The notes beneath the pieces are model-generated. The model was not told the origin of the DNA, made no database searches, and worked only from the letters and a program-made list of their open reading frames with translations. From contig JBKKDM010000177.1 of NCBI GenBank assembly GCA_046707905.1, positions 80,877 through 144,876 of the forward strand: a stretch of DNA of 64,000 bases. Direction: 5' to 3'. Position numbers and translations under genes: made by a program. Below are positions 17,611-44,764 of this stretch, piece by piece. This DNA comes from Candidatus Limnocylindrales bacterium (lineage in GTDB: Bacteria > Chloroflexota > Limnocylindria > Limnocylindrales > CSP1-4). Numbering within the stretch: the stretch's first letter is position 1; each line of letters begins with the position of its first letter.

Positions 17611-18450
17611 GTGCTCGGGCGGCGAGAGGGCGCGATGGAGGCACCGGCCCGATCCGGGTCGCCGCAACCAGTCGTCGAGCGCGGAACTCGACATTCGGTC
17701 GAGCTGCGCCTCCTGGGCGGCTTCGAGTTGCGAAAGCACGACCAGGTCTTGCCAACGCGGCCCGGGGGAAAGACCCAGACCTTGCTGGTCAATCTCGCCT
17801 TGCGCCTCCACGTGGGCATGGAACGGGATGAGCTGTGCACCGTCCTCTGGCCGGCAAGCGACGAGGCACTGGCCGCGCAATCGCTGGACACGCTTCTTCA
17901 TAGTCTGCGGCGGAGCGTCGGTGATGCCTTGGGCGGTGCCGCGCCGGTCGTGCGAACGGCGGGTCGCCTCCGGCTAAACACGGAGATCGGGATCGGAGTC
18001 GACGTCGAGGCATTCGAGGCCGAGGCCATCCAAGGCGATCGACTCCGTCGGGCCGGCAGCCAAGCCGAGGCGATGACGTCATACGAGCGGGCGGCGAGCC
18101 TCTATCACGGAGATCTGGTGGTTGGATCGGAAGTCCGACACCTCCTCGAACGGGAACGCCTGCGAGCGCGCTATCTCGAGCTTCTGGCGAGCCTCTCGGA
18201 CGCGCGCTTTGCCGCGGCGGACTACATGACCTCTCGCGAGTGGGCCCAGACGCTCCTGCAGTGCGATCCCTGTCGCGAGGATGCCCATCGCTTGGTGATG
18301 CGATGCGATGTCCGCCTGGGCCGGAGGGCCCAGGCTCTTCGCCAATACGCCACGTGCGCGGAGATCCTTCGGCGCGAGTTCGCAACTGATCCGGAACCAG
18401 CGACTCGAGAGCTGTACGACTCGGTGCGCCTCAGTCCCGCGCACGTCTAG
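17611..18450 (+). CDS. SARP-family (AfsR/DnrI/RedD-like) transcriptional activator: OmpR-type winged helix plus BTAD
   Basis: N-terminal VELRLLGGFELRKHDQVLPT...LLVNLALR (OmpR/PhoB-type DNA-binding domain). BTAD-like helical repeat region (YERAASLYHGDLVVG...AHRLVMRCDVRLGRRAQALRQY...REFATDP). Alternative start ATG 17635. Confidence 0.7.
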   Translation: MLGRREGAMEAPARSGSPQPVVERGTRHSVELRLLGGFELRKHDQVLPTRPGGKTQTLLVNLALRLHVGMERDELCTVLWPASDEALAAQSLDTLLHSLRRSVGDALGGAAPVVRTAGRLRLNTEIGIGVDVEAFEAEAIQGDRLRRAGSQAEAMTSYERAASLYHGDLVVGSEVRHLLERERLRARYLELLASLSDARFAAADYMTSREWAQTLLQCDPCREDAHRLVMRCDVRLGRRAQALRQYATCAEILRREFATDPEPATRELYDSVRLSPAHV

Positions 18451-18825: not shown

Positions 18826-19191
18826 GTGGGCGAGAAGCTCGACTGGACGATCATCGTGCAGGCCGTCAACGGGCCGCAAATGAAATCGACGGCCTCGGCC
18901 GACGTTGATGCCTACGACAAGTTCACCTTCACTGTGCCGGCCGGCGGATCAGTCGACGTCGAGCTTGGCCCTGGGGGCTCCGCCGTCAGCTGTCTGGTCG
19001 CCATTCCGGCCCAAGGAGCGACCGGGGTCACGTACAAGGTCGGGACGAACGACGTCAAGCTCGACGCCCCGCTGGTCCTGCTCGGCGGCGCCGTTGCGCT
19101 CTCCGGGAGCCCGACCTCGCTGACCTTCGACAACGCGGACGCTGCTGATGCGTCCGTGGAGATCCTCATCGGCCGAAAGGCCGCCACCTAG
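18826..19191 (+). CDS. Hypothetical beta-rich protein, first gene of the eCIS operon
   Basis: GTG start preceded by a perfect AGGAGG RBS. 121 aa. No similarity to the clear tube protein at 20798. Confidence 0.5.
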   Translation: MGEKLDWTIIVQAVNGPQMKSTASADVDAYDKFTFTVPAGGSVDVELGPGGSAVSCLVAIPAQGATGVTYKVGTNDVKLDAPLVLLGGAVALSGSPTSLTFDNADAADASVEILIGRKAAT

Positions 19192-19231
19192 GCGTTCGGC
19201 GCGTCGAGAGCTCAGTACTGCGAGGAACAAC

Positions 19232-20785
19232 ATGGCCCTGACCTTGGCTCACCCGGGTGTCTACATCGTCGAGAAGCCGAGTGGTGTTCGGACGATCACC
19301 GGGGTCGCAACCTCGATTACCGCGTTTATCGGCCGCGCCCTCCGGGGCCCCGCCGATCGGCCGCGCCTGGTCCAGAGCTTTGCCGAGTTCGATCGCGTCT
19401 ATGGCGGACTGTGGGCCGAAAGCACCCTCGGCTACTCCGTATCGCAGTTCTTTTCCAACGGCGGTCGCGATGCCCTCATCTGCCGTGTCCACAACGGCGC
19501 GATCGCGGCCTCGCTGACCGTTGGTGGCAATCTCGATCTCGTCGCGGCCAGCCCTGGCACGTGGGGCAGCCGGCTGCGCGTCCGGGTGGAGGATGCCCCG
19601 GACCGGCCCAACGAGACCCCTGGGACGCGATTCAATCTCTACGTCAAGGACACGGCGACAATTCAGGTCGAGCGCTTCCTCAACCTCTCTACCGATCCGC
19701 TCAACGCTCGATTCGTGACCGAGATCCTGGCGCAGCAGTCGGAGTTGGTCCGAGTCGACCCCGCCGGGTCTGTCGGGGCAACCCGCCCGACGGCCGATGC
19801 CGCCGCCGTCGTAGGCCAGGACCCACTCGACAGCGCACCGTTCTCCAATCCCTTTCCGACTAACGGCGGAGACGGCAATCCGATCACCGACAATGCCATC
19901 TCAGCGCCTGGGCTCGAGGCCGGACGTCAGGGCCTCTGGATGCTCGAGAACGCCGACCTCTTCAACATTCTCGTCATCCCTCCACTCGAGCGCGACACCG
20001 ATGTCGGCCAGGTCACCTGGGACGCCGCAATCCGCTTCGCGCGCGACCACCGCGCCATGGTGATCGTCGATGCGCCCGCGGCTCTCGGGACGCCCGATCA
20101 GCTGCTCAACGGCATGTCCACGATTGCAACGCCCGACCAGAACGCGGCGCTGTACTACCCGCGCTTCCGGGCCCCGGATCCGCTTGCCGAGAACCGCCTC
20201 GCGACCTTCGCAGCTTCGGGTGCAGTAGCCGGGATCTACGCGCGAACGGACGCCCAGCGCGGCGTCTGGAAGGCGCCCGCCGGGCTGGACGCAACGCTGG
20301 TCGGTGTGTCCGAACTCACGGTCCGGCTGACCGACGGGCAGAACGGCCGCCTGAACCCGCGCGGCGTCAACTGCTTGCGAGTCTTCCCGGTGCATGGCCG
20401 AGTGGTCTGGGGGGCACGGACCCTTCGGGGCGACGACCAGATGGCCTCTGAGTGGAAGTACGTGCCCGTTCGGCGGACGGCACTGTTCATCGAAGAGAGC
20501 CTGTTCCGCGGCACCCAGTGGGTTGTCTTCGAGCCGAACGACGAGCCCCTCTGGGCCCAGATCCGCCTCAACGTCGGCACGTTCATGCAGGACCTCTTCC
20601 GACAGGGCGCCTTCCAGGGCGCCTCGCCACGCGAGGCGTATTTCGTGCGCTGCGACGGGGAGACGACCACGCAGAGCGACATCGATCGCGGGATCGTGAA
20701 TATCCTCGTCGGCTTTGCGCCTCTCAAGCCCGCCGAGTTCGTCGTCATCACGATCCAGCAGATCGCCGGTCAGCCGGCAGCGTAG
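19232..20785 (+). CDS. Contractile tail sheath protein (Afp2-4 / phage sheath family)
   Basis: Start MALTLAHPGVYIVEKPSGVRTITGV is the hallmark sheath N-terminus. GAGGA RBS. 517 aa. Its C-terminal region is also typical of sheath proteins. Confidence 0.9.
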   Translation: MALTLAHPGVYIVEKPSGVRTITGVATSITAFIGRALRGPADRPRLVQSFAEFDRVYGGLWAESTLGYSVSQFFSNGGRDALICRVHNGAIAASLTVGGNLDLVAASPGTWGSRLRVRVEDAPDRPNETPGTRFNLYVKDTATIQVERFLNLSTDPLNARFVTEILAQQSELVRVDPAGSVGATRPTADAAAVVGQDPLDSAPFSNPFPTNGGDGNPITDNAISAPGLEAGRQGLWMLENADLFNILVIPPLERDTDVGQVTWDAAIRFARDHRAMVIVDAPAALGTPDQLLNGMSTIATPDQNAALYYPRFRAPDPLAENRLATFAASGAVAGIYARTDAQRGVWKAPAGLDATLVGVSELTVRLTDGQNGRLNPRGVNCLRVFPVHGRVVWGARTLRGDDQMASEWKYVPVRRTALFIEESLFRGTQWVVFEPNDEPLWAQIRLNVGTFMQDLFRQGAFQGASPREAYFVRCDGETTTQSDIDRGIVNILVGFAPLKPAEFVVITIQQIAGQPAA

Positions 20786-21330: not shown

Positions 21331-22113
21331 GTGGTCATTGAACGATCGGACGGCCGCACGACGACGCGACTGGACCCGACCAGCCTCGTTGATCTCTGGG
21401 AGACCCACGCACAGCGTGGGGCCCTGCACGCCGGAATCACCGCCCTTGAGCGGGCTGGGAACCGGGACGTTCTCTCACTGACGCTCGGCGATCGCAACGA
21501 GCGACTTCTCACGCTGCGCCAAGCGCACCTCGGGGACGACTTGAACTTGGTGGCGACGTGTCCACATTGCGGGGTGGATGTGGAGGCAACGGTTTCCTGC
21601 GATCAGCTCATCGCCGCGGGTTCAGAGGATGACGCCACGGATCGCGATGGTGCCAAGGCCGAGCGCGGGTCATGGGACCTCACCCTCGATGGCTACCGGA
21701 TCAGGATGCGGCCCCTCCGGGTTGCCGCTGAGGTCGGTGCGGTCGCCGCTGACGATCTCGAGTCCGCTCGGGCCGTTCTGATCACGGCCGCCGTGACCGA
21801 GGCTTTCCGGGAAGCAGACGTCGTCGAGCCCACCCAGCTTCCTGAGGCGGTCGTTGTCGCCGCCGGCGATTCCGTGCTGCAGGCGGATCGACTCGCGGAG
21901 GTCGAACTCCAAATCATGTGCCCTGAGTGCTCGAGGTCGTGGCCAGCGAGCCTGGACGTTTCGCGCTTGGTGCCCGAGGAGCTGTCACGTCTCGGGGCCG
22001 AACTCTTGGGTGATGTCGACCTACTTGCACGCACGTACGGGTGGACCGAGGCAGCCGTTCTGGCACTGCCAGCGGCGCGGCGCGCGACCTATGTCGCCCT
22101 TGCGAGCGGCTGA
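21331..22113 (+). CDS. eCIS-associated hypothetical protein with two CxxC motifs
   Basis: CPHCG and CPECS about 108 aa apart (a possible zinc ribbon). Sits between the tube and DUF4255 genes. Possible assembly or tape-measure-associated factor. Confidence 0.5.
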   Translation: MVIERSDGRTTTRLDPTSLVDLWETHAQRGALHAGITALERAGNRDVLSLTLGDRNERLLTLRQAHLGDDLNLVATCPHCGVDVEATVSCDQLIAAGSEDDATDRDGAKAERGSWDLTLDGYRIRMRPLRVAAEVGAVAADDLESARAVLITAAVTEAFREADVVEPTQLPEAVVVAAGDSVLQADRLAEVELQIMCPECSRSWPASLDVSRLVPEELSRLGAELLGDVDLLARTYGWTEAAVLALPAARRATYVALASG

Positions 22114-22829
22114 TGCTCCGGAACGACCTCTTCACGCGACTCGCGACCGGCAGTCGAGGGCCGGGCGCGCTCCGGCTCCGCCCACGCCCAACGTGGCGGA
22201 CGTTCGGAGATGGTCTCGATTCTGAGCTGGAAGCGGGAACGCCCACCGTGGGAGATCGCGCGGCCATGACAGCCATACGATCATCAGCACGCGGGATGAC
22301 CCGCGACCGCATCGACGAATTCGCTCGTCAATCCCGGCCTCAGAGCCCCCGTACCCTAGCCCACGAAGCGTCTACCGATCTTGCTGCGCCCGTCCTGGTA
22401 CAGGGCGGCCGTCTGGCTGCAGCGGTTGCCGCCCCGAAACCGTCAGTCACGCCGGCGTCTGTCGCGGCCGAGGACGCGTCGTCCGCGGTCGATTTCGAGT
22501 CCGCCTCGACCGCGCCCGCCTCGGAGCCGAGCGCGGAGATCGACAGCATCCGAAAGGGCGCCGCGCCTGACCTCGAAGGTCAACAAGGACCCAGCCTCGA
22601 TACCTTCGCCGTCGTCCGTCCCCGGGCCGGTGTCAATCGCCGACGAGGGTCTGATCCCACGCGAATGGCATCCGAACCGGCCCCCGTCCCCGACGTCGTC
22701 GTCCAGATCGGCAGGATCGAGGTCCGAGCCGCGGTCGTGGCTGCACCACGCCGCGAGCCAGCGAGCCGACCACGGCCCCGGCTCTCGCTCGATCAGTACC
22801 TCAACGACCGTCACGGTTCGGCCGGATGA
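22113..22829 (+). CDS. Ala/Pro/Ser-rich hypothetical protein (candidate tape-measure / length-determinator-like)
   Basis: Start ATG overlaps the upstream stop (TGATG). Low-complexity extended composition with a more conserved-looking C-terminus (VVQIGRIEVRA...LSLDQYLNDRHG). The tape-measure assignment is a guess. Confidence 0.45.
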   Translation: MLRNDLFTRLATGSRGPGALRLRPRPTWRTFGDGLDSELEAGTPTVGDRAAMTAIRSSARGMTRDRIDEFARQSRPQSPRTLAHEASTDLAAPVLVQGGRLAAAVAAPKPSVTPASVAAEDASSAVDFESASTAPASEPSAEIDSIRKGAAPDLEGQQGPSLDTFAVVRPRAGVNRRRGSDPTRMASEPAPVPDVVVQIGRIEVRAAVVAAPRREPASRPRPRLSLDQYLNDRHGSAG

Positions 22830-24094
22830 GCACCGCCCTCGCCGTCGCTGGCGTCACCGCCGTCCTGCGCGGTGTGCTTGACGCCTGGCTGGTCGATCAG
22901 AACGCGGCCACGGCCCTCGGGGGTGCGAACCCGGAGGTGAGCGCTGTGGCCCCGGACACGATCGAGCTTACCGGCGCCAACGCGGCACCGCGGCTGAATC
23001 TCTTTCTCCATCACGTCTCACGAAACGCGGGCTGGAGCAACGAGGACCTGCCATCCCGGAACGGCTCCGGAGAGCGGAACGCCAGCCCGGCACTCGCGCT
23101 CGATCTGCACTACCTGTTGACCGCCTACGGACCTGCTGAGCTCCAGGCAGAAGTCCTGCTCGGCATGGGGATGCAGCGCCTTCACATGAGCCCGGTGCTG
23201 GGGCGCTCCGACATCGAGGCGCGCCTGCCGGTCCGTCTTCGAGGTTCCGCACTCGGTCGCCAGGTCGAAATGATCAAGGTGACCCCAGAGCCCATCGGCA
23301 TCGAGGAGCTGTCCAAGTTGTGGACGGCGTTGCAGGCCCACTACCGCCCATCAGCGGGGTACCAGGTTTCAGTCGTCCTGATCGAGGCCCCGCAGACCGG
23401 CCGTGCCCCCAAACCGGTCCTTTCCCGCGGCGCTGCTGATCCCATCTCTGGCCGAGAGCGCGGCGTCGTGACCATTGCCGGGGTTGGGCCGGTCATGCCG
23501 CTCGTTTCGTCGATCGAGGGCTCGACCGGGCACGCGACAGCGACGCTCGGGGCGGTTGTCGAGATCGCCGGCGTCAACCTTCAGGGCGTCGGCCGAACCG
23601 CCATCCTCGAGAATCGACTACTCGGCATCCGGCGCGAGGTGGCCGCGGCCGCGAACACCTCGGACGATACCGTCCGTTTCACGATCCCCACCGCCCCCGC
23701 ACAGCTGGCGGCCGGGATCTACACGGTGCGAGTCAGGCTTACGCCGCCAGGTGCCTCCGGGCCATGTGAAACGAACGAGCTCGCCCTCTCACTCCTGCCT
23801 GAAATCCTTTCCACCAATAGCCCAGTGACGGCGAATGGCCAGGGCGTAGCCCAGATCGACCTCGTGGTCCGGCCCCAGGTCAGGCCGTTCCAGGACGCAG
23901 CATTGCTGATCGGTGGTCGTTCGATCCCGGCCGAGCCGCATCCCACGGCGACGGCGAGCCTGCGATTCCGCGTGCCGGGCGCCGTCGCCGATACCTACCT
24001 GGTCGCCCTGCGTGTCGCCGGCATGGAGACGCCGAGGATCGACCGTAACGCTACCCCAGTGGCCTTTGCCGGAACCCCGGTGGTGATCACGTGA
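22826..24094 (+). CDS. DUF4255-domain protein (Afp16/Pvc16-like tail terminator/cap)
   Basis: N-terminus MSTALAVAGVTAVLRGVLDAWL fits the DUF4255 N-terminal helix pattern. ATGA overlap with the upstream gene. Sits just before the AAA ATPase, as in type-II eCIS gene order. Confidence 0.65.
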   Translation: MSTALAVAGVTAVLRGVLDAWLVDQNAATALGGANPEVSAVAPDTIELTGANAAPRLNLFLHHVSRNAGWSNEDLPSRNGSGERNASPALALDLHYLLTAYGPAELQAEVLLGMGMQRLHMSPVLGRSDIEARLPVRLRGSALGRQVEMIKVTPEPIGIEELSKLWTALQAHYRPSAGYQVSVVLIEAPQTGRAPKPVLSRGAADPISGRERGVVTIAGVGPVMPLVSSIEGSTGHATATLGAVVEIAGVNLQGVGRTAILENRLLGIRREVAAAANTSDDTVRFTIPTAPAQLAAGIYTVRVRLTPPGASGPCETNELALSLLPEILSTNSPVTANGQGVAQIDLVVRPQVRPFQDAALLIGGRSIPAEPHPTATASLRFRVPGAVADTYLVALRVAGMETPRIDRNATPVAFAGTPVVIT

Positions 24095-26016
24095 TTGAGG
24101 AGGCAATCCGGGAGGCCGTCCCGTGGCTGGACGCCAATCAGAGTTATCTCGCGGCGCACCTCGCGCGCGTCGCGGCGTTGCTCGATCGGGCGAGCGCCCT
24201 GCCTGGGGCAGACGCGACGCTCGCCGACGCCCAGGCCGCGGTCGACCACGCGGGAGCTGAGGTCGTCGAGCCCGCGCTCGATCGGATCGTGCGTCTCTTT
24301 GGGCTGACCGACTTCGAGCGCGACACCCTCCTTCTCTGCGCGGGTGTTGAGCTCGACGCGGGGATCGCTCGCCGGTGCGCAGGAATCGCCGGCGGACCGT
24401 GGGGGACCTTCGGGACTGCGCTGGGGAGCTTCCAGGGAGCGCACTGGAGCGCGCTGCTGCCCCATTCCCCCCTCCGCGGATTTCGGCTCGTCGAGCCGGC
24501 GACGGTGGATTCGATCGTCACGGCGCCTCTCCGCGCCGCAGAGCCGGTGATCCATGCCCTGGCCGGATTGGAAACGCTCGATGGGGAGCTTGCGCCGCTC
24601 CTCACTCGCGCGATCCCGGCCCCACTAGCGGCCCCCTCGCAGAGCGCCGTCGCAGAGCAGCTCTCCGGCTGGCTCGTCGACTCGTCGTCCGGCCGATTCC
24701 AACTTGTCGGCGATGACGCAGAGGGCCAGCGGGACGTGGCCGCAGGGGCGTTGGCGCGGATCGGTCGGGGCCTCTGGACGCTCCCCGCGTCCGAGATCCC
24801 TCGAGACGTCGCCATCCGTCAGGCCTTCGCCTCGACGTGGAGCCGAGACGCCGCGCTGCTCGGCGCCGCCTTGCTCATCACGCGTGCGGAAGAACATGCC
24901 GACGCTGCCGTGGACTTCGCGCTCCGGATCTCGGGCATTGTTGGGTTCGCATCCGTGCATCGCCTTCCAATGCCCCCTGGCGCCGGCACGTGGCCAGTCG
25001 CGCTGCCAGAGCCCATCGAGCAGCGCAACCTGTGGCGTCAGGCCGTGTCCGAGGACGTCCTCGATGACGAGAGCCTCGGTGTCGTCTCGAGTCAGTTTCG
25101 CCTTTCGGCTTCCGGAATCGAGCGCGCCGCGCTCGAGCTGGTTGCGGTTGGGATCTCGGGCAGAGCAGCTCTCCGCGCCATTCGCCCCGCCACCGACAGC
25201 GACGCTGTCGGCGAGCTCGCCACCTGGATTGAACCGCGGGCCGACTGGGACCAGCTCGTCTTGCCGATGGACCAGATCGACGTTCTTCGGGAGATCGTGG
25301 ACCAAGTGCGCGGGCGGACGACCGTACACGACGCTTGGGCGTTTCGGGCCCGTGCGGGGGATGGCCTGGGGATCGCGGCCCTCTTTGAAGGAGACAGCGG
25401 GACTGGGAAGTCCCTGGCGGCGGAGGTGGTGGCGACGGCGCTCGGGTTGCCCGTATTGCGAGTCGACCTGGCGGGCGTCGTGAGCAAGTACATCGGTGAG
25501 ACCGAGAAGAACGTCAGCCGCATCTTCGCGGTGGCCGAGGGCAGCGGCGCGGTGATCCTCTTCGACGAGGCGGAGGCCCTCTTCGGCAAGCGCACCGAGG
25601 TCAAGGACAGCCACGACCGCTACGCGAACATCGAGGTCGCGTATCTCTTGCAGCGGGTCGAGGCGTATCGCGGGCTCGCGATCCTGACCTCGAACGCCCG
25701 ATCGTCGATCGACAAGGCATTCCTTCGGCGGCTGCGGTTCGTGGTCAAGTTCCCGTTTCCCGACCAGTCCCACCGCGAGCGCATCTGGCGTGCGGCGTTT
25801 CCCACCGCCGCGCCGACCAGGGGCATCGATTACCGCAGCCTGTCGCGACTTCCATTGGCGGGTGGTGACATCCGAAACATCGCGCTCGGTGCGGCATTCC
25901 GGGCAGCTGCCGCCGGGGAGCCTATCCGGATGGTCCACATCCGGGCCGCCACGAGAAGAGAGCTCGAAAAGCTTGGCCGATCGCCATCTGACGCGGACGT
26001 CGAGGCCCGCCGATGA
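24091..26016 (+). CDS. AAA+ ATPase (Afp15/Pvc15-like eCIS assembly ATPase)
   Basis: Walker A GDSGTGKS, Walker B ILFDEAE, sensor/arginine region SNARSSIDKAFLRRLRF. A long unique N-terminal region precedes it. GTGA overlap start. Confidence 0.9.
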   Translation: MIEEAIREAVPWLDANQSYLAAHLARVAALLDRASALPGADATLADAQAAVDHAGAEVVEPALDRIVRLFGLTDFERDTLLLCAGVELDAGIARRCAGIAGGPWGTFGTALGSFQGAHWSALLPHSPLRGFRLVEPATVDSIVTAPLRAAEPVIHALAGLETLDGELAPLLTRAIPAPLAAPSQSAVAEQLSGWLVDSSSGRFQLVGDDAEGQRDVAAGALARIGRGLWTLPASEIPRDVAIRQAFASTWSRDAALLGAALLITRAEEHADAAVDFALRISGIVGFASVHRLPMPPGAGTWPVALPEPIEQRNLWRQAVSEDVLDDESLGVVSSQFRLSASGIERAALELVAVGISGRAALRAIRPATDSDAVGELATWIEPRADWDQLVLPMDQIDVLREIVDQVRGRTTVHDAWAFRARAGDGLGIAALFEGDSGTGKSLAAEVVATALGLPVLRVDLAGVVSKYIGETEKNVSRIFAVAEGSGAVILFDEAEALFGKRTEVKDSHDRYANIEVAYLLQRVEAYRGLAILTSNARSSIDKAFLRRLRFVVKFPFPDQSHRERIWRAAFPTAAPTRGIDYRSLSRLPLAGGDIRNIALGAAFRAAAAGEPIRMVHIRAATRRELEKLGRSPSDADVEARR

Positions 26017-26249
26017 GACGCCTGACCATTGCCGTGGACACCCTTGTGGTCGAAGGCCTGGCGGACCTCGACCCCCGCGCACTCGAGCGTGCGTTCACGC
26101 AGCGCGTCGGCGAGCTGTTGGAGGCGGGAGCACTCGAGAATCTCGGTCGCGCGGGTCGCCTGGCCGTCGATCCGATCTCGACCGGTGACGCGCGGGCGGC
26201 CACCATCGGCGGCGCTATCGCGGAATCCTTGTCGAGGGCCGCGCAGTGA
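26013..26249 (+). CDS. Small hypothetical protein (78 aa) between the ATPase and the first DUF4157 protein
   Basis: ATGA overlap at both ends. Possible adaptor or chaperone. Confidence 0.4.
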   Translation: MRRLTIAVDTLVVEGLADLDPRALERAFTQRVGELLEAGALENLGRAGRLAVDPISTGDARAATIGGAIAESLSRAAQ

Positions 26250-28066
26250 CGGCGGCCGCTGCGCGCGTCGTGATGCCATCTGGTCCTGCTCGACCACCGG
26301 CTCGACCGCGAGCGTTCGCGCCGGACGCACCACGCGAGCGCGAGGCCGCCTTCGCGGCCGCGCGCGTTCTAGCAACAGGCGGGCCTCCGCTGACGACCGG
26401 ACCGCACTCGGCAGGCAAGACCGCGGACGGCGTCGGCGGCGAGCCCCTGCGACGCGCGGAACGCTCCTTCTTCGAGGCGCGATTCGGCGCCGACCTCGGG
26501 GCCATTCGGATCCATACGGCCGCTGCCGCCGACCCGATCTTCCTTCAGACCGGCGCGACGGCAGCCGCGCTCAGGGGCGACATCTGGTTGCGAGAGAGTG
26601 CGGCGATCGACCCCGGCTGGAGGAAGCGGACGCTGGCACATGAGATCGCTCATGTGCTGCAGCCGGAGGTCGCGAGAGGGGAGCGCTTGGGTAGGACGGT
26701 TGACGACTGGTTGACCGGCAGCCCAGCAGTCCGCAGCTGGGGCTACACCCAGCTCGTATCGGAGATCGATGACCTCGAGGCATGGCTGGAACGGCAGACC
26801 ACGTCCTCGTTTGACGAGACGCGCGTCCGCGAGGCGCTGGCGGAATTGCGAGGCGAGGTTGCACGGCGGGACCGCGAGGCCCGAAGGGCTGCTCGCTCCC
26901 GCCCGCGCCCAGCGGGCCGCGATGCGGCTCTGCCGGCTCGCCGGCCGCGCGTTCTGTCGGAGCCGTCGAGCTACGTGTACTCGGACCCATCGGAGATGCG
27001 CGCCGAGTACGACTTGATCATGGAGTGGCTCGCCCGCCGCGACGTCTCCCGCGCCGAGCGCCGCATGCTCGAGGTTGAGCGCGACAACCTCGCACCCCAG
27101 TTCGCGTCCGACCGTGTACGCGTCGCTGGCGAGCAACGGGTCGCCAGGTTGCAGGCGGCCTTGGCGCCGTCCGACCAAGAGGCCGGCCGCGAGCTGGAGG
27201 TCGCTGCCCGCGTGATCGCTGGCATCGCTCGAGATGACCAAGACACGAACCGATACTGGATCTACCAAGGCGGCGAACGGCTGCCGATCAGCGCCGATCA
27301 GGCCTCCCAGGTCCGGGGCGAAATCGATCGCCAGTTGCGCCGCGCCTCGCGGATGATCGCCGGCGATTCAGAGCAGTCCTGGGACACCTATCAGTCCCAG
27401 CTGGCAGTCAACCGGGACCATCCGATCATCTCGTCGATCGCCGGCTGGCTCGGCGGTGCGAACGACCCAGGGGAGGAACTCTCGAGGCGTCGGCGCCGGC
27501 TGGTACACGAGCTCAGGACCTACGACGAGGAAATCGCCGCTGGGAACATCGTCGCCGCATCGCGCAGGCTCGCGACGATCGAACGCCAGGCCCAGGTCAT
27601 CCATGGCGCCGCCGCAGCCTTCCGGGACCGGCACATCTCGGGTGCGGAGCGGGCCGTGGGCGCGCTCGAGATCACGCGAGATGTCTCGTTTGCGATCGCG
27701 GGCAGCATCGCAGCCGTGCTCGCCGCTCCAGTCGTCGCCGGGGCAGTGGCAGGGGCGGGGTTGACCGGGGCCACCGCGACGGTCGCGACGATTGGGGGCA
27801 CGGGTCTGGTTGTTGGTGGCGGGACCGGAATCGTTCGGGGTGGATCCGCGGCAACCGGCGTCGTCCTCGCCGGCGGTAGCGCTCGTGACGCCGGACGGGC
27901 ATTCGTGGGTGAAGGTGGGCGCGGTTTCCTTGATGGATTCATGGCCGGGCGGGCGGCGGCGCCGCTCGCGTGCTGGGGACGGCTCTGGGGATTGGCGGGC
28001 AGGTGGGTGGACAGGTCGCCCGGCGAATGGCGGCGGAGGCGATCGTCAATGGAACATCCTCGATGA
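26246..28066 (+). CDS. DUF4157-domain protein (eCIS cargo/toxin candidate 1, N-terminal part)
   Basis: DUF4157 signature PLRRAERSFFEARFGADLGAIRIHTAAAADPIFLQTGATAAALRGDIWL...LAHEIAHVLQ (HExxH). Coiled-coil middle region. Gly-zipper-like C-terminal segment (VAGAVAGAGLTGATATVATIGGTGLVVGGGTGIV). Confidence 0.75.
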   Translation: MTAAAARVVMPSGPARPPARPRAFAPDAPREREAAFAAARVLATGGPPLTTGPHSAGKTADGVGGEPLRRAERSFFEARFGADLGAIRIHTAAAADPIFLQTGATAAALRGDIWLRESAAIDPGWRKRTLAHEIAHVLQPEVARGERLGRTVDDWLTGSPAVRSWGYTQLVSEIDDLEAWLERQTTSSFDETRVREALAELRGEVARRDREARRAARSRPRPAGRDAALPARRPRVLSEPSSYVYSDPSEMRAEYDLIMEWLARRDVSRAERRMLEVERDNLAPQFASDRVRVAGEQRVARLQAALAPSDQEAGRELEVAARVIAGIARDDQDTNRYWIYQGGERLPISADQASQVRGEIDRQLRRASRMIAGDSEQSWDTYQSQLAVNRDHPIISSIAGWLGGANDPGEELSRRRRRLVHELRTYDEEIAAGNIVAASRRLATIERQAQVIHGAAAAFRDRHISGAERAVGALEITRDVSFAIAGSIAAVLAAPVVAGAVAGAGLTGATATVATIGGTGLVVGGGTGIVRGGSAATGVVLAGGSARDAGRAFVGEGGRGFLDGFMAGRAAAPLACWGRLWGLAGRWVDRSPGEWRRRRSSMEHPR

Positions 28067-29073
28067 TTGACGCCCTCGCGCACGGGGCAACAGTCGAGCA
28101 AGCGGTCGCGGCTGGCCTCAGGAGCGCCGCCCTTGCCGTACCGGGCGCGGTTGTCGGGGCTTCGGGGAGCCGACTGACACGAGAGCTCGGTGGACCCCTC
28201 GCCGCCGGCGGCACGGCGTACCTCGGCGCAATCGCTTCCGGTCAGTCGCGGGAGGAGGCCTTGCGCGCCGCCGCGGTAGCGGTCGCAGCGAACGTGGTCA
28301 CGAGCCGCGCCCAGCACGGCGCCGAGGCCGACGCGCGGCTCGAGGCGCGCGGCCGGGCCATCGGAGAAGCCCTTCGACCGTCTGGTCGAGCCACGGTGCC
28401 GGCCAGCGCGACGGCTCCTCCCATTACCGTCGCAGGCCAGGCGGCGCCGGATTCTCCGTCCGCCTCGAGCCCGCCGCAGGCGACATCCGCTGCGGCGCCC
28501 GCGACGGCAACGCCGGGACCGACCGCCAGCTCAGCCCAAACGAGCGCCGGTGCCGGGGCCGCCCAACCGACGCCGACCCCGACCGTCGCTGCGGCCCCCC
28601 AGGCCTCGATCGCCGGTGCGCCGGCAAGCACGGCGACGGCGTCGCCTGGCCCCCGCGAGTCGGCAGGCGCCACACCGCCGGGCATCCGCCAGCACACCGA
28701 TCCATTCACCGGACAAACCCACCCCGTCACGGCATCGGCTCGGGCCCCCAGCGCCATCCACGGTCACATGCGCGGCACCGGTGCGGAGTTCGAGGCCTAC
28801 AACACGGCTCTCCATCGCCGCGGCGAGATCGGCATCCAGCGACCCGGTCGTGTGAACGAAGGCGGTCCGGACTTCATCACGGCGCGGGTGGCGCCGAACG
28901 GGCCTCCGGGCTGGATGGGCGAGGTGCAGGCCGCCGTTGCTCCCGGCCGACTCAACCTGGGCGACGCCGCCCTCGAAGCCCAGATTCGCGCAGCGGTCAC
29001 GGCGGGCAACGTGACCATGCGAAATCTCCAGGTCCGGATCTCGCCGACCGGCCTGACGATCACCGGTTGGTAG
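27970..29073 (+). CDS. Probable continuation or C-terminal effector domain of DUF4157 protein 1 (different frame: frameshift or overlapping gene)
   Basis: Frame +1 is open from 27934. Its protein-like Gly-rich segment merges into an Ala/Pro/Thr-rich linker, then a distinct roughly 120-aa C-terminal domain (IHGHMRGTGAEFEAYNTALHRRGEIGIQRPGRVNEGGPDFITARV...). The last about 30 codons of the 26246 frame look non-protein-like (W/R-rich). Confidence 0.5.
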   Translation: MLGTALGIGGQVGGQVARRMAAEAIVNGTSSMIDALAHGATVEQAVAAGLRSAALAVPGAVVGASGSRLTRELGGPLAAGGTAYLGAIASGQSREEALRAAAVAVAANVVTSRAQHGAEADARLEARGRAIGEALRPSGRATVPASATAPPITVAGQAAPDSPSASSPPQATSAAAPATATPGPTASSAQTSAGAGAAQPTPTPTVAAAPQASIAGAPASTATASPGPRESAGATPPGIRQHTDPFTGQTHPVTASARAPSAIHGHMRGTGAEFEAYNTALHRRGEIGIQRPGRVNEGGPDFITARVAPNGPPGWMGEVQAAVAPGRLNLGDAALEAQIRAAVTAGNVTMRNLQVRISPTGLTITGW

Positions 29074-29077
29074 GACC

Positions 29078-29734
29078 GTGACTGGATTCACCCGATCGCC
29101 GCGGCTCGTCAAGGGGGGTCTCGTGCTCCTCGAGCCCCTGACGGGTGCGCCGCTCGGCGTCATCGCGTTGCAGTACAACCCGGACTCGCTGTCGCGCACG
29201 CTGCAGGTGCAGGGGACCGGCGAGGGCGGCGCGCGGAGCGACGCCCTCCGCCTGAAGGGCCCGCCAATCGAGACGATCAAGCTCGAGGCTGAGGTCGATG
29301 CGACGGATCAGCTCGCCGACCCATCCGCCAACCCGACGGCCGTCGCGGTCGGAATCCACCCACAGCTTGCCGCCCTCGAGATGCTCGCCTATCCGAGCTC
29401 GACCGCCATGTTCGTCAACGCCGTCCTCTCGGCCATCGGCACGATCGAGGTCGTGCCGATGGAGGCGCCGCTCAGCCTGTTCGCCTGGAGTCCCAACCGG
29501 GTCGTCCCGGTCCGCATCACGGACTTCTCGATCACCGAGGAGGCCTTCGATCAGCACCTCAATCCGATCCGCGCGAAGGTGAGCCTCGGGCTTCGGGTCC
29601 TCACACCAGACGACCTCGGGCTGCTGCATCGGGGGAGTGCCATCTTCATGGCCCACCTGATCGCCAAGGAAGCACTTGCACGCAGGGCCCCACGCGCGAG
29701 CCTCGGCCGGCTGGGCCTCGGAGGCGTGCCGTGA
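29078..29734 (+). CDS. Tube-like / baseplate-proximal hypothetical protein (possible second tube-family or tube-initiator component)
   Basis: Beta-rich 218-aa protein immediately before the LysM and gpD genes. Weak resemblance to tube-fold proteins. Assignment tentative. Confidence 0.4.
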   Translation: MTGFTRSPRLVKGGLVLLEPLTGAPLGVIALQYNPDSLSRTLQVQGTGEGGARSDALRLKGPPIETIKLEAEVDATDQLADPSANPTAVAVGIHPQLAALEMLAYPSSTAMFVNAVLSAIGTIEVVPMEAPLSLFAWSPNRVVPVRITDFSITEEAFDQHLNPIRAKVSLGLRVLTPDDLGLLHRGSAIFMAHLIAKEALARRAPRASLGRLGLGGVP

Positions 29735-31773: not shown

Positions 31774-32094
31774 ATGCCCGGCCCGGTGCTCCACCTCGGC
31801 GCGACCGTCCTGTGCTCCCACGGCGGCCAAGCGACCCCAACGACCCCCAACGCACGGGTCACGGTGAGCGCGCAACCCGTCGCGACGGTCGCCAGCCCGT
31901 ACGGCGTGGTCGGGTGTCCCTTTGTTCCGAACGCCGGAAACGGCCCCTGCACGACGGGCCAGTGGTCAGCCGGCGCTACCCGGGTCTTCGCTGCCGGGCA
32001 GCCCGTCGTCGTGATGAGCGGAACCTCGACTTGCGTGCCGACCGGCACGCCTCTCGCTCCCGTGTCATCCCAGACGCGGGTCATCGCGACCTGA
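31774..32094 (+). CDS. PAAR-like (DUF4280) spike-tip protein
   Basis: 106 aa. HLGATVLCSHGGQATPTTPNARVTV and repeated Cys/Gly/Pro pattern typical of DUF4280. Directly follows the spike gene. Confidence 0.6.
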   Translation: MPGPVLHLGATVLCSHGGQATPTTPNARVTVSAQPVATVASPYGVVGCPFVPNAGNGPCTTGQWSAGATRVFAAGQPVVVMSGTSTCVPTGTPLAPVSSQTRVIAT

Positions 32095-32096
32095 CG

Positions 32097-32462
32097 ATGC
32101 AGCTCAACTACCCGTTCCGATTTGACACCCGGCGACGGACCGCCGGCGCGGACGACGATGAGCACGTCCGCGACCTGATCGAGCAGGTGCTGTTCACCCA
32201 GCTTGGCGAGCGGGTCAATCGACCGGACTTCGGGAGCGGCCTCCTCACCCTCACGTTCGCCCCGATGTCAGACGAGATCGTGGCCGCCACCACGTTCCTG
32301 GTGCGGGGATCGCTCGAGCAATGGCTGGGCGGCCTCATCGCCGTCGAGGACGTCGCCGTCGAACGCGGAGACGGGACGCTGAACGTAACGGTCGCGTACA
32401 CGATGCGCAGAACGGGCGAGCAACGGGTCGCCCAGTTCTCGAGACCTGCGGGCGCGCCATGA
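32097..32462 (+). CDS. Baseplate wedge protein gp25 / GPW family
   Basis: MQLNYPFRFD...VRDLIEQVLFTQLGERVNRPDFGSGLLTLTFAPMSDE fits the GPW/gp25 pattern. Confidence 0.8.
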   Translation: MQLNYPFRFDTRRRTAGADDDEHVRDLIEQVLFTQLGERVNRPDFGSGLLTLTFAPMSDEIVAATTFLVRGSLEQWLGGLIAVEDVAVERGDGTLNVTVAYTMRRTGEQRVAQFSRPAGAP

Positions 32463-40056: not shown

Positions 40057-43000
40057 ATGAGCGCCGATTACAGCCGCTGGCCCGTCAGGACACGAGACTT
40101 CACCCAGGTTCGGCTCCAACAAGGGCGAGTTCTCACGGATGCGGACTGGAACGAGCAGGCCCTCGTCGCGGAGCGACGCGAGCGGTTCGAGACGATGGAT
40201 GGGCTGGGGCGGGCAGTCGTCCCGACGGCGTCTGCGAACGCCTTCGCGATCACGGTCTCGGGCTCCGACCTTTCGATCGGCGTTGGCCGAGCTTACGTCG
40301 ACGGCCTCCTGGTCGAGAACTACGGCACCCCTGGCGCCTTCGATCCGATCACAGCCGAGCGGATGCCGAGCGGGCCGGTGCTCTATTCAACCCAGCCGTG
40401 GCTCCGCAACCCCCCGAACCTGCCGGCTGCCCCGTACGCCGCATACCTCAAGGCTTGGCAGCGAGAGCGAACAGCCGTCGAGGAACCCAGCCTCATCGAA
40501 CAGGCCCTCGGCGTCGACACCGCGGCCAGACTCCAGACGGTCTGGCAGATCAAGACCGTTTCGACCGGGCCGGCCGCGACGTGCGATGACCTCGATGCGC
40601 TGATCGCGGCGGCAGAGCCAGCGGCCGCCGGGCGGCTTACCAACGGGACCGCGGTCGTTCCGGGCCAGCCGGATCCCTGCCGGGTGGTGCCGGGGGGCGG
40701 CTACACGGGGCTCGAGAATCAGCTTTATCGCGTCGAAATCCACCGCGGCGGCGTCGTCGGTGGGGCGGGAGGTGCAACGTTCAAGTGGTCGCGCGACAAC
40801 GCAACCGTATCGGCGCGCGTCGAATCCATCGGGCAGGCCCGAAATCGCCTGGTGGTCGACTCGCTCGGACCGGACGACGTTCTCTCGTTCCACGATGGCG
40901 ACTGGGTTGAGATCCTCGACGACGATCACGAGCTCGGCGCGCTGCCTGGTGAGCTTCGTCAGATCCAGATCGGCGGGGGAATCGACAAGGCCAGTCGAAC
41001 CATCGTGCTGACCGACGCACTCCCGTCCGCCGCGCAGGCCTTCCCGGTCGACGCCCAGCTCCGAACCCTGCCCGATCGCAACACGCGAATCCGCCGCTGG
41101 GACCAGGCAGGCAAGGTCCTGAACTCTGGCGGGGGAACGGTCACAGACCTCGATGCCGCCAACGCCACCGGCGCAATCCTCGTCCCGGCGTCGAACGTCT
41201 CGGTTCTGCTCGAGCACGGGATCGTGGTCCGCTTCTCCACCGAGGGCCAGGGCCGCTTCCGAACGGGCGACTTCTGGCTCTTTGCCGCGCGGACGGCCGA
41301 TGCCAGCGTGGAGGTCCTGGCGGCCGCACCGCCGCTCGGCGTCCACGCGCATTACGCCCCTCTCGCAATCATCGGGCCCAATCCCAGCGACTGCCGCACG
41401 ATCGTCCCGCCTTTGGCCGAGATGGACACGCTCCACTACCTCGGCGGCGACGGGCAGGAGGCCACCCCGTCCTACCTCCAGCCGGCTCCCATCACGCTTC
41501 CGGTCCCGATCGCGGTTGGCGTCAGCCGTGGCAGCCTCCCGGTGGCAGGCCGCACGGTCCGTTTCACCATCGTCGACTTCCCGAACGCGGGCTCGTTGCC
41601 CGGCGCCGCTCAGGGAACGGTCGAGATCGATACGCCGGTGAACGGCATCATCAGTTTGGTCTGGACGCTCGGGTGGGATGGTCGCGAGAGCCAGAAGAAG
41701 CAGGAAGTGGTGGCCGAGCTCCTCGATGGGGTTGGCCAACCGATAGGGCTGCCGATTCGCTTCTCGGCCCGGCTTCGGACCGCCGACCTGGTCGCCTACG
41801 ATCCCGCCGCGTGTGCCGATCTCGCCGGTGCCGGAACCGTGCAGCAAGCGCTGGATGCACTGTGCGGACGCGACCCGGGCGAGGGCTGCTGCCTCATCGT
41901 GCGGCCGGGTGACCGGCTGCCAGCCGCGATCGAGGAGGCGGCCGCGCGCGGGAAGGGACACGCGTGTCTGTGCCTGACGCCCGGCGTCTATGAGCTGTCC
42001 GAGGACGACTCGAACCAGGTGCGGGAAATCCTCGGGCAGGTGCTGACGCTCACCATCGGCGGTCGCGGCGCACAGATCCTTCTCGGCGCTCCACTCGTCA
42101 TCGAGGGCCTCCAGGCTCTCGATATCCGCGAAGTCCAGATCGCCAACGCGACCGAACAGCTCGACGTCGTGCTCGACATCGTCGGCTGCGGCTCCGTCAC
42201 GCTCGACGGCATCGAAGCCAATCTGACCAATGGCTCCGAGGATTCTCGGGTCGTTCGGATGGCCAGCCCGGAAGCTGGGGAAGCCCCGCCCGCCATCAGG
42301 ATTCGGAACTGCACCATCCAACACGGGAAGCGCGTTCGACGGTTCCCTCGTGAGGAGATCGTCGGGGAGCTTCCCGCGACCATCCGGGCGATGGTCCTCA
42401 TGGCTCGCTCCGAATCGCCGGCCGGCGACACGGTGAGTGAATTCCGAAACCTGATGGACCAGCCCGAGGAGCGCCGTGTCGCTGACGCGGACATGCTCGA
42501 CGCTCTTGCGACTGAGCATCGCGACTTGCTCGATGTCACGACGAATCGTGCCATCAACCGTCTTAGCTCGACGGTCCGTGAAGGCCGCAGCCTGCCGCTC
42601 TCCCGCCTGACGACGCTCCTGGATCGAGCGCGCCTCGTCGGCGACCGCTTTATCCGTGAGTTCGACGCCGGGACGGCCGTGGAGATCGTCGACGGCCGAA
42701 GCGACGTCTGGCTCGATAGCAACCAGCTGCGCGGCAAGGTCATGGTCTATGGCTCCGGCGCACGCCCGGACGCTGAAGCCCGGTTGCAGGAGGTTCTGGA
42801 GGGCATCGACTGGTTCGGGATTGAACCCGGTGCCATGCAGGTTCTTCCGCCCGGGGTCGCAGGACTCCGGCTTTCGAAGAACACGCTGGCTCGTATCACG
42901 ATCGGCGGAGATGGCGTCGAGGCGTTCCTCCGCTTCCTGGAGACGCGCGAGTTTCCGGACGGGCTGCTGTTCGACTCTGTCGTGCTCGACGGCAACGACA

Positions 43001-43215
43001 TGTCCGACCCTCGCCAGGCCGTCCTCGGCCAGCTGGTCTCGCTCGCATCGAACACGATCGGCGGTGGACGAGGCGCCTCAATGGGCTTTGCCTGTGGCAA
43101 CGTCGCGACCATGAGCGGAAACATCGGGACGAATGGCGAATTCCTGCTGGCGGCCTGGGAGAGCGCCGAAGCCGCCAACCGCCGCATGAAGATCCATCCC
43201 GGAACCCATCCGTGA
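40057..43215 (+). CDS. Large tail-fibre / receptor-binding-like protein
   Basis: 1052 aa. N-terminal motif VRLQQGRVLTDADWNEQ, recalled (not checked) as recurrent in eCIS-associated fibre-like proteins. Gly-rich beta-rich body. Last structural gene before cargo. Confidence 0.5.
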   Translation: MSADYSRWPVRTRDFTQVRLQQGRVLTDADWNEQALVAERRERFETMDGLGRAVVPTASANAFAITVSGSDLSIGVGRAYVDGLLVENYGTPGAFDPITAERMPSGPVLYSTQPWLRNPPNLPAAPYAAYLKAWQRERTAVEEPSLIEQALGVDTAARLQTVWQIKTVSTGPAATCDDLDALIAAAEPAAAGRLTNGTAVVPGQPDPCRVVPGGGYTGLENQLYRVEIHRGGVVGGAGGATFKWSRDNATVSARVESIGQARNRLVVDSLGPDDVLSFHDGDWVEILDDDHELGALPGELRQIQIGGGIDKASRTIVLTDALPSAAQAFPVDAQLRTLPDRNTRIRRWDQAGKVLNSGGGTVTDLDAANATGAILVPASNVSVLLEHGIVVRFSTEGQGRFRTGDFWLFAARTADASVEVLAAAPPLGVHAHYAPLAIIGPNPSDCRTIVPPLAEMDTLHYLGGDGQEATPSYLQPAPITLPVPIAVGVSRGSLPVAGRTVRFTIVDFPNAGSLPGAAQGTVEIDTPVNGIISLVWTLGWDGRESQKKQEVVAELLDGVGQPIGLPIRFSARLRTADLVAYDPAACADLAGAGTVQQALDALCGRDPGEGCCLIVRPGDRLPAAIEEAAARGKGHACLCLTPGVYELSEDDSNQVREILGQVLTLTIGGRGAQILLGAPLVIEGLQALDIREVQIANATEQLDVVLDIVGCGSVTLDGIEANLTNGSEDSRVVRMASPEAGEAPPAIRIRNCTIQHGKRVRRFPREEIVGELPATIRAMVLMARSESPAGDTVSEFRNLMDQPEERRVADADMLDALATEHRDLLDVTTNRAINRLSSTVREGRSLPLSRLTTLLDRARLVGDRFIREFDAGTAVEIVDGRSDVWLDSNQLRGKVMVYGSGARPDAEARLQEVLEGIDWFGIEPGAMQVLPPGVAGLRLSKNTLARITIGGDGVEAFLRFLETREFPDGLLFDSVVLDGNDMSDPRQAVLGQLVSLASNTIGGGRGASMGFACGNVATMSGNIGTNGEFLLAAWESAEAANRRMKIHPGTHP

Positions 43216-43231: not shown

Positions 43232-44764
43232 ATGGCGCAAGGTCCCTGGCGCCGGTCGACGAGGTCGCGCAGCTCCCCGCAAGAGCGGCAGGCTGACGCG
43301 ATCGCGGCGATGGTGTCTCGGGCAGATTCGAAGCCCTCATCTGCGCACCGCTCGCGGCAGGGCTTGCCGGCCGTGCTCGCCGGTCGGCTCCGTTCCGCCA
43401 CGGGCTACGACTTCTCCGGCATCCGAGTGCATGCCGGCAGCCAAAGCGCGTCCGAGGCCCGGCGCTTGGGGGCCAGGGCCTTCACGGTGGGCCGAAACGT
43501 CCATCTCGGCAGCGAGGCTGCGACCGATCAGGAAACGCTGTTGGCCCACGAGGCCGTGCACGCGGCCCAGCAGGGAAGCGTGCCGCAGGCCACGGCCTGG
43601 GGCGGACCGTCGACCACGCTGCTGAGGAGCGAGCCGAACATCCCACAGCTCACTCCGGGCGTGGACGCGACCGACAGCTGGCGCGACCTCGTCCGGCAGG
43701 AGGCGTTCATTCCGGACGAACCCACGCTGCGGGCTCGCGGGACCTCGGCCCGCGACCGCTTCCTACAGGCGCGCGAGGGCCAGCGATTGATCAACAACCT
43801 ATGGCAAGCCTCGAATCGAGGCAGGGCCAGTCCTCGTTTCGGCTTGGGTGTCGCGTTCCGAACGCAACTTCCGCCGCAAACTGATGGCCTCGATGCGAGT
43901 GGCTATTTCGAGCCCAACTCCCCGAGCGCTGGGCGCTATACCGTCCACGTCAAGGATGTGCTGCCCCCGATCTCAGGGTCGTTCCGTGTCGGCGGCATCA
44001 CGGGTGAGGGCGTTGGGTACGCGCATACGGATCCCGAATCTGATATGGCCGCCACACTCCACCACGAGCTGGAGCACGTGGAATTCGTTCGAACCGGGGC
44101 CGGAACGATCTGGCCGACCGGACATGGCGACGTCAGCAAGGGTGAAGTCGAGCCTGCCTTTCGTGAGCGCATCGCCGCATTTCAGGGCGACCTGGATGCG
44201 ATCGAGCGGCGTATCCGCGCAGACGCCGTGGCGCGAAACCAGGAGCCGATAGCCGCGGCTCCGGCAACCCGGGACGTCGCGCCGGCCAGGTCCGCGTCAA
44301 CGCCGTCCGATCAGCCGTTCGTGGGCTTCAGGTTGAGTGGCGAGGCCGGTTTGGCCGGTCAGGACGGTCGCCGTTTCGCCGGCGTGGCTGGTGCAGACCT
44401 TGTCCTCGGTCGAATCAGCTCCCTGAATCTCGGCGCGAGAGGCGTGTACTTGACGCCAGATCGCCTCTTCGCCGGTGGTGCCGTTGGCATTCGGTTCGGC
44501 CAATCGGCAGGTGACAGAGCAGGTCAGCGCGTCGAGAATCCGCTCTTCTTCGACATCGAAGCCGGCGTCGTAGGTCAACTCAACGCGACGGAAGCCTCTC
44601 GTGTAATGGATCGCGTCGGACTGTTCGGTTCGGCCGGAGTCGGCCAGGAATACGGGACGTCGGGCAACCGCTTCTTCTGGCGGCTCGGCGGCTTTGTGAT
44701 CGTCTCGGATCGGGGCAATGCATCGGGCGGTGGGACTGCGGGAATCGGTGTGCGGTTCCAATAG
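43232..44764 (+). CDS. DUF4157-domain protein (eCIS cargo/toxin candidate 2) with second HExxH and Gly/aromatic-rich C-terminus
   Basis: DUF4157 signature LAGRLRSATGYDFSGIRVHAGSQSASEARRLGARAFTVGRNVHLGSE...LAHEAVHAAQQ. Second zincin-like motif ATLHHELEHVEF. C-terminal 150 aa rich in G/F/R with alternating hydrophobics (beta-rich). Confidence 0.75.
   Translation: MAQGPWRRSTRSRSSPQERQADAIAAMVSRADSKPSSAHRSRQGLPAVLAGRLRSATGYDFSGIRVHAGSQSASEARRLGARAFTVGRNVHLGSEAATDQETLLAHEAVHAAQQGSVPQATAWGGPSTTLLRSEPNIPQLTPGVDATDSWRDLVRQEAFIPDEPTLRARGTSARDRFLQAREGQRLINNLWQASNRGRASPRFGLGVAFRTQLPPQTDGLDASGYFEPNSPSAGRYTVHVKDVLPPISGSFRVGGITGEGVGYAHTDPESDMAATLHHELEHVEFVRTGAGTIWPTGHGDVSKGEVEPAFRERIAAFQGDLDAIERRIRADAVARNQEPIAAAPATRDVAPARSASTPSDQPFVGFRLSGEAGLAGQDGRRFAGVAGADLVLGRISSLNLGARGVYLTPDRLFAGGAVGIRFGQSAGDRAGQRVENPLFFDIEAGVVGQLNATEASRVMDRVGLFGSAGVGQEYGTSGNRFFWRLGGFVIVSDRGNASGGGTAGIGVRFQ

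Follow-up and report, generated by a model that had tools for sequence, protein, structure and literature searches.

Effectors associated with extracellular contractile injection systems (eCIS), referred to as eCIS-associated toxins (EATs), consist of an N-terminal DUF4157 domain, a long linker and a C-terminal toxin, and many of them lack an immunity gene (Geller et al. 2021, PMC8213781). In AlgoCIS, an N-terminal loading sequence is needed for cargo loading (preprint 10.64898/2026.05.27.728243). Here, we analyse a gene of this type at positions 26246-29073 on the + strand of a stretch of 64,000 nucleotides (nt) from Candidatus Limnocylindrales, which we refer to as the window and which has a G+C content of 66% and encodes a complete eCIS on the same strand. 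The gene is divided between two reading frames and we suggest, with a probability of a little over 60%, that it is a degraded and inactivated eCIS effector gene, i.e. a young pseudogene that has suffered the loss of one base and a deletion of 63 nt.

The comparison with described systems places the gene among the EATs. As in EATs of the DUF4157/'PVC-metallopeptidase' type and in Cgo1 and Cgo2, which are cargo of AlgoCIS, a PF13699 domain with an HExxH motif is present near the N-terminus; a very long linker, a variable C-terminal effector domain and a complete eCIS locus are also shared with EATs and, as for many EATs, there is no adjacent immunity gene. The gene differs from EATs in that (i) it is located amid the structural genes of the operon, with the AAA ATPase gene before it and the tube gene after it, rather than at the 3' end, (ii) it encodes a conserved Gly/Ala-rich hydrophobic module of ~250 amino acids (aa), and (iii) in this genome it has a frameshift and a truncated C-terminal domain. 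The family to which the C-terminal domain belongs resembles the Tox-REase families (Zhang et al. 2012, PMC3482391) in being a small C-terminal domain on CdiA/filamentous-haemagglutinin (FHA), Rhs and PVC-metallopeptidase proteins with E, D and (D/E)xK residues on an alpha-beta-beta-beta-alpha-beta core. It departs from the Tox-REase families in several respects: none of the Pfam Tox-REase models matches its sequence, D-A-T replaces DxK in one subgroup, no conserved immunity gene was observed, and stand-alone members are found among housekeeping genes. Decaying effector pseudogenes in toxin loci are similar to the gene in combining a single-base indel and an internal deletion with intact orthologues, and compared to these there is nothing distinctive in the gene analysed here.

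One ancestral gene in two reading frames

A preliminary description of the window had reported an open reading frame (ORF1) at 26246-28066 and an overlapping frame (ORF2 frame) open from 27934, and both exist as described. ORF1 encodes 606 aa; the second frame is bounded upstream by a TGA at 27931-27933, which makes 27934 exact as its start, and the stop codon of this frame is at 29071-29073. The joined product is 941-942 aa, close to the ~940 aa that had been estimated, and a single indel does fuse the DUF4157 domain, a Gly-rich module, an Ala/Pro/Thr linker and a compact C-terminal domain, as had been proposed (Table 1). The segment 26246-27949 comprises the N-terminal region, the DUF4157/eCIS_core domain and a helical region, and then enters the Gly/Ala-rich hydrophobic module (residues about 478-730; 25% Ala, 19% Gly), of which it contains the first half. 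The PF13699 domain contains an intact HExxH motif, HEIAH, at 26639-26653, and the linker that follows the hydrophobic module ends in an RESAGA motif at about 28654-28668.

With the fused 941-aa sequence as query, 29 homologues of 760-1200 aa were identified, the 606-aa ORF itself not being counted, and all 29 cross the junction as a single polypeptide. The closest relative, and the nearest among GTDB representative genomes, is the Candidatus Limnocylindrales metagenome-assembled genome GCA_035248345.1 (contig DATFHO010000064.1; L002), in which Pvc16_N, AAA, a small ORF, the DUF4157 protein and the tube gene occur in the same order as in the window. The orthologue (L002:5299-8289) is an unbroken ORF of 996 aa that is 67% identical to the window protein and has the same N-terminal, middle and C-terminal domains. 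DUF4157 is joined to the C-terminal effector in one polypeptide in the 29 homologues and in L002, and is separated from it by the change of frame in the window. The comparison with orthologous loci, which the preliminary description had proposed as a check, therefore upholds the reading as one gene: the orthologues are unsplit, and 26246-29073 is made up of the halves of one ancestral gene of ~940 codons. In the deposited annotation of L002 the orthologue starts at 6001, 234 codons late, giving a protein of 762 aa without DUF4157; homology and the open frame both extend back to 5299.

The frame changes at a GGG run at which the orthologues have a full Gly codon and the G of the following Ala codon. 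In the nucleotide alignment, the window reads ggccgg-gcgggc, L002 ggcaggggcaggc and L003 ggcgggcgccggg, i.e. the window has a single-base gap in a glycine codon. In the protein alignment, the homologues have GF[MLV]AGAGGGAARVLG, with the wider consensus GFREGFMAGAGGGAARVLGPALGVGG; of the two halves in the window, ORF1 gives GFLDGFMAG and the second frame gives AGGGAARVLGTALGIGG (aligned as AGGGAARVLG), and the junction-spanning peptide in a joined product would be GFMAGAGGGAAR. The site at 27947-27949 lies within the interval near 27940-27975 in which an indel had been placed. The label '+1' that had been given to the downstream frame has to be changed: this frame is -1 relative to ORF1 (codon starts move from pos%3=2 to pos%3=1), equivalent to one lost base.

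Codon usage places the switch at the same site. Log-odds scores trained on 12 Pfam-supported genes of the window are +12.6 bits for the ORF1 frame and -30.1 bits for the ORF2 frame over 27830-27949, and -22.8 bits and +13.5 bits, respectively, over 27950-28069, so that the frame switches at 27950; the score of the ORF2 frame remains positive up to 29039. When the whole window was scanned, a long non-coding tail was found in just one Pfam-supported gene, ORF1 (31 codons, -21.5 bits). None of the 29 homologues has a counterpart of the ORF1 tail, which had been described as W/R-rich nonsense of about 30 codons; the composition is correct, and the length is 38 codons.

The C-terminal domain family and its copy in the window

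The last 132 aa had been regarded as a domain that could not be assigned, and they have no match in Pfam or NCBIfam or, with profiles of 9 and 96 sequences, in PDB sequences. The domain is not unique, however: a first search found 8 relatives, and a profile search at E <= 1e-3 found at least 341 cluster representatives, 128 of them at E <= 1e-30. The distance from the end of the domain to the protein C-terminus is no more than a few residues in most of 137 full-length members. Its N-terminal partners include TPS and Fil_haemagg (filamentous-haemagglutinin) repeats in a CdiA-like protein of 2394 aa (P0079), RHS repeats in proteins of 3757 and 1833 aa (P0113 and P0100, respectively), DUF4157 with or without PT-TG (P0045, P0052), LysM (P0203) and OmpA_C, and there are also stand-alone family proteins of 160-190 aa. 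This location at the extreme C-terminus behind different trafficking modules is what one would anticipate for the C-terminal domain of a polymorphic toxin. The C-terminal domains of the 29 whole-protein homologues are interchangeable, with the window-type domain in P0002, P0003 and P0027, a Pput2613 deaminase in P0019 and AHH in P0029.

Conservation among the 137 full-length members is concentrated in a few residues. E37, G62 and D64 are present in all 137, D82 in 135 (with a Glu in one other), K84 in 117 and W102 in 99%, giving the family signature E…GEIG…GxDFITA…DxK…W…E, in which D-A-T-I-N replaces D-x-K in 14 members, the nearest orthologues among them. Structure prediction, another check that had been proposed, was made for the orthologous domain, encoded at L002:7825-8286, for which AlphaFold2 (AF2), on the basis of a 96-sequence alignment, predicts a folded domain with a predicted local distance difference test (pLDDT) score of 90.8 and a predicted template modelling (pTM) score of 0.78. 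The modelled elements are a helix at 24-47 (with E37), strands at 51-54, 66-71 (preceded by D65) and 77-85 (with D83), helices at 98-107 and 118-129, and a strand at 133-141. The modelled orthologous domain has the alpha-beta-beta-beta-alpha-beta core, and E, D and D-x-K fit the canonical positions of a PD-(D/E)xK nuclease on this model. Based on motifs and topology, we predict that the C-terminal domain is quite probably a PD-(D/E)xK-type nuclease. Foldseek searches gave best E-values of 0.05-0.07 (PDB) and 0.009 (BFVD) with template modelling (TM) scores of <=0.36, none of which is significant; most of the named top-ranked matches, weak as they are, are nucleases with the restriction endonuclease (REase) fold, and the named matches comprise MspJI, HincII, SfsA, FokI, Hjc, NucS, a bunyavirus cap-snatching endonuclease, SPARDA and phage PD-(D/E)XK proteins.

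The copy in the window carries a second lesion, an in-frame deletion of 63 nt relative to L002 (21 codons: TVQVIVSDATINLNKRTYSAV) and of 60 nt relative to L003. The segment, which is located between DFITARVAPNG and PPGWMGEV, is present in every relative and is absent from the other frames and from both strands of the window, and the window protein is the only one of the 137 members with a gap at D82. On the orthologue model, the deleted residues correspond to the entire central strand 77-85 and the loop to the next helix, and the lost motif, DxK or, in the nearest orthologues, D-A-T, carries the invariant Asp. The window copy keeps E and GxD and is without the D82/K84 strand. Because the strand with the invariant Asp is lost, we predict that the C-terminal domain of the window is inactive, and it is very unlikely to be an active toxin. 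The earlier proposal of a putative toxin domain is borne out to the extent that the family is polymorphic-toxin-like; the loss from the window copy of ~21-24 residues, among them the strand that bears the invariant Asp, had been overlooked.

In all architectures, i.e. in fusions to DUF4157, to LysM and to other modules, an ESxGA motif is found ~10 residues before the C-terminal domain (RESAGA in the window). The stand-alone members P0083, P0186, P0202 and P0210 start at this motif, with the sequence M-x-I-[IL]-E-S-x-G-A. The motif may mark a domain boundary or function in processing.

No cognate immunity gene is present directly downstream in the window or in L002, the next gene being the tube gene 4 nt later, and none is evident beside four stand-alone family members, the neighbours of which are unrelated. 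Stand-alone members at L013 3001-3525, L018 3001-3576 and L019 3001-3843 are located among unrelated, partly housekeeping genes. These stand-alone members are also without a conserved small downstream gene, and such a setting is unexpected for a nuclease toxin. We tentatively consider, at somewhat less than even odds, that the domain defines an undescribed REase-like toxin family on CdiA, Rhs, LysM-, OmpA- and DUF4157/eCIS proteins, with an ESxGA boundary and typically without a neighbouring immunity gene, and that the window copy is a naturally detoxified member. If so, the absence of immunity genes would suggest that the producer lacks the target or that an activation step is involved.

Origin of the frame change

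Combining the comparative data with the two lesions, we suggest the following scheme for the decay of the gene. The eCIS of this lineage would encode a DUF4157 effector of ~1000 aa between the AAA+ ATPase and the tube gene, with 26246-29073 as the orthologue. An intact protein would presumably be packed into the particle via its N-terminus, and the eCIS would presumably deliver a PD-(D/E)xK-type nuclease-like domain. In the window, (i) the base loss would stop the main product after 568 authentic and 38 nonsense codons, in the middle of the Gly/Ala module, (ii) the 63-nt deletion would take the central beta-strand and the following loop from the C-terminal domain, and (iii) a 336-aa remnant might re-initiate at 28063, without a loading end and with a crippled warhead. 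With the warhead uncoupled from the loading end and its core partly gone, the effector gene would be in early decay. The presence of two independent lesions in one gene fits relaxed selection.

The base loss at 27947-27949 is, on balance, probably a true mutation. Arguing against a pure assembly artefact, an independent Logan assembly (run SRR31159422) matches the window exactly across 9,821 nt that contain the GGG run, and the 606-aa and 336-aa genes are called in both. Several observations weigh against the pseudogene interpretation. Both assemblies probably derive from one run and a systematic error in the G-run is thus possible. Conservation is equally high on both sides of the shift (76% identity to L002 after it versus 79% before it, the latter for residues 141-568); amino-acid identity by segment was used for this comparison because the only close orthologue is ~77% identical and synonymous sites would be saturated. 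There is no internal stop in the 374 codons after the shift. A second candidate frame switch is present at ~59850 on the minus strand and could be a sign of an appreciable rate of assembly indel errors. Finally, the nuclease assignment is derived from motifs and topology, with Foldseek E-values of 0.009-0.05 and TM-scores of <=0.36. Because the downstream part is conserved and without stops, the lesion would be recent if it is real.

If the missing G were a sequencing or consensus error, the real sequence would be GGGG and the gene would encode an intact 942-aa DUF4157 protein that still has the 63-nt deletion. The fully open downstream frame with its conservation, the candidate switch at ~59850 and the probable origin of both assemblies in one run all agree with such an error, as does the nature of the change, which is a one-base difference in the length of a G-run inside a GC-rich repeat-like stretch (ccgggcgggcggcggcgcc). 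However, the same string was obtained from two assemblers, and a run of just 3-4 bases is short for an error of the homopolymer type. No disruption is seen in the other syntenic genes: ~9 neighbouring genes equal their L002 counterparts in length, so that indels are not scattered through the stretch. Moreover, the gene already has an independent, non-artefactual inactivating deletion. Given these data, we regard an error as unlikely, and favor a true mutation. In searches for an intact allele, an exact DNA pattern permitting GGG or GGGN had no match in metagenomes of the Joint Genome Institute (JGI), and a protein-guided metagenome scan for a near-identical strain returned a best relative that is just 52% identical.

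Two further explanations would give the split a function. In one, ORF1 and ORF2 are two proteins, with ORF2 translated separately by termination-reinitiation at the ATG at 28063 or from a GTG at 27970. The ATGA at the ORF1 stop is a possible re-initiation point and is arranged as at genuine junctions of the operon, and gene callers report two genes; yet none of the 29 homologues is split, the break lies within a conserved module, the ATG at 28063 corresponds to a conserved internal Met position, and ORF2 would lack both the N-terminal part needed for loading and the strand with the invariant Asp in its C-terminal domain, all of which makes two functional proteins very improbable. In the other, which the preliminary description had raised, a programmed -1 ribosomal frameshift or transcriptional slippage would yield full-length protein in a fixed proportion. 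If the Gly-tRNA slipped by -1 on GGG, exactly the consensus FMAG-AGGGAARVL would result, but this holds for any single-base lesion at this position. No slippery heptamer X_XXY_YYZ is present at the site (gcc ggg cgg gcg), no homopolymer is long enough for slippage of RNA polymerase, the 121 nt downstream fold no better than dinucleotide shuffles (z = -0.52; 56 of 200 shuffles equal), and the shift is absent from all homologues including the 67%-identical orthologue. In the absence of a slippery site, of an RNA structure signal and of conservation, a programmed frameshift is rejected, and recoding of any kind here is scarcely credible.

In annotation, the 606-aa and 336-aa genes are best joined and marked as a single disrupted effector gene. 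Its C-terminal piece is a poor toxin candidate because it is without the strand bearing the invariant Asp; this toxin-domain family is unannotated and numbers several hundred clusters, and experiments would be better directed at its intact members, for example the Limnocylindrales orthologue. The split gene provides no new recoding mechanism. For eCIS biology the analysis is a modest addition: it describes a conserved family of DUF4157 effectors that are encoded mid-operon and whose C-terminal domains are interchangeable (nuclease-like, Pput2613 deaminase, AHH).

The eCIS locus

The gene is located inside the eCIS cluster, on the same strand as sheath, T4_baseplate, Pvc16_N, AAA, CIS_tube, gp25, Baseplate_J and DUF6519 genes (Table 1).

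Table 1. Features of the split DUF4157 gene and of the eCIS locus in the window
Feature	Position	Strand	Basis or remark
Sheath	19148-20785	+	eCIS structural gene, Pfam
T4_baseplate-like	21331-22113	+	eCIS structural gene, Pfam
Pvc16_N	22826-24094	+	eCIS structural gene, Pfam
AAA+ ATPase	24091-26016	+	Directly before the 78-aa ORF; Pfam
Conserved 78-aa ORF	26013-26249	+	4-nt overlaps with upstream AAA ATPase gene and downstream DUF4157 gene
Authentic 5' part of effector gene, codons 1-568	26246-27949	+	Homologue alignment, positive codon-usage score
DUF4157/eCIS core domain PF13699, residues 67-140	26444-26665	+	E = 5e-13, 49.4 bits, cutoff 22
Frameshift site, GGG run, one base missing compared to orthologues	27947-27949	+	Nucleotide and protein alignment
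Gene continuation in -1 frame, second half of Gly/Ala-rich module	27949-28437	+	Aligned to all 29 homologues, 76% identical to L002
Out-of-frame ORF1 tail RAAAPLACWGRLWGLAGRWVDRSPGEWRRRRSSMEHPR, 38 nonsense codons and TGA	27950-28066	+	9 R, 4 W
ATGA overlap of gene-caller ATG of ORF2 (P0031, 336 aa) and out-of-frame TGA of ORF1	28063-28066	+	
Ala/Pro/Thr/Ser-rich low-complexity linker	28438-28674	+	Length and sequence vary among homologues
C-terminal domain, truncated family member	28675-29073	+	76.5% identical to L002 domain over aligned positions
Deletion junction	28900-28905	+	In-frame, 24 profile columns relative to the family
Tube gene (CIS_tube)	29078-29734	+	Next gene 3' of 26246-29073, 4 nt away
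gp25	31812-32462	+	eCIS structural gene, Pfam
Two Baseplate_J genes		+	eCIS structural genes, Pfam
DUF6519	40057-43215	+	eCIS gene, Pfam

NTGA overlaps join most genes of the eCIS operon. The 78-aa ORF that precedes the split gene has no match in Pfam or NCBIfam, and its 4-nt overlaps on both sides are consistent with translational coupling. A small ORF of 78-91 aa with a 4-nt overlap is found upstream of the DUF4157 effector family whichever C-terminal toxin follows, with counterparts before the orthologues in L002 (ending at 5302) and L004 (521-796). This small ORF may encode an adaptor or chaperone.

Four genes in the window encode PF13699 (DUF4157/eCIS_core) domains and these start at 26246 or are located at 43232-44764, 52071-54350 and 55343-57139. 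In the third protein (52071-54350), domains of the M14-like carboxypeptidase and VanY (D-Ala-D-Ala carboxypeptidase) types suggest an effector directed at the cell wall. The gene at 55343-57139 overlaps by 4 nt with the gene that follows it at 57136-57756, which encodes a HEAT_2 repeat protein. Zhang et al. (2012, PMC3482391) list HEAT-repeat proteins as immunity partners of Tox-REase-7 and, by analogy, the two genes may form a toxin/immunity pair with the HEAT-repeat protein as the immunity protein.

Outside of the eCIS genes, the candidate frame switch on the minus strand (region 59067-60586) involves an unannotated ORF at 59633-60586, in which the coding signal runs from 60586 to 59852 and is followed by an R/S-rich tail of 72 codons (-30 bits) up to the stop at 59633. 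The coding signal resumes in another frame from 59846 to 59079, a signature like that at 27950; neither half has a Pfam match. Regulatory genes are found at two places in the window: a BTAD-domain regulator is encoded upstream of the eCIS at 17611-18450, and a HisKA_3 kinase/GerE response-regulator pair at 48128-50322, after the structural genes and before the later DUF4157 genes. Both are in agreement with the types of regulators reported near eCIS loci.

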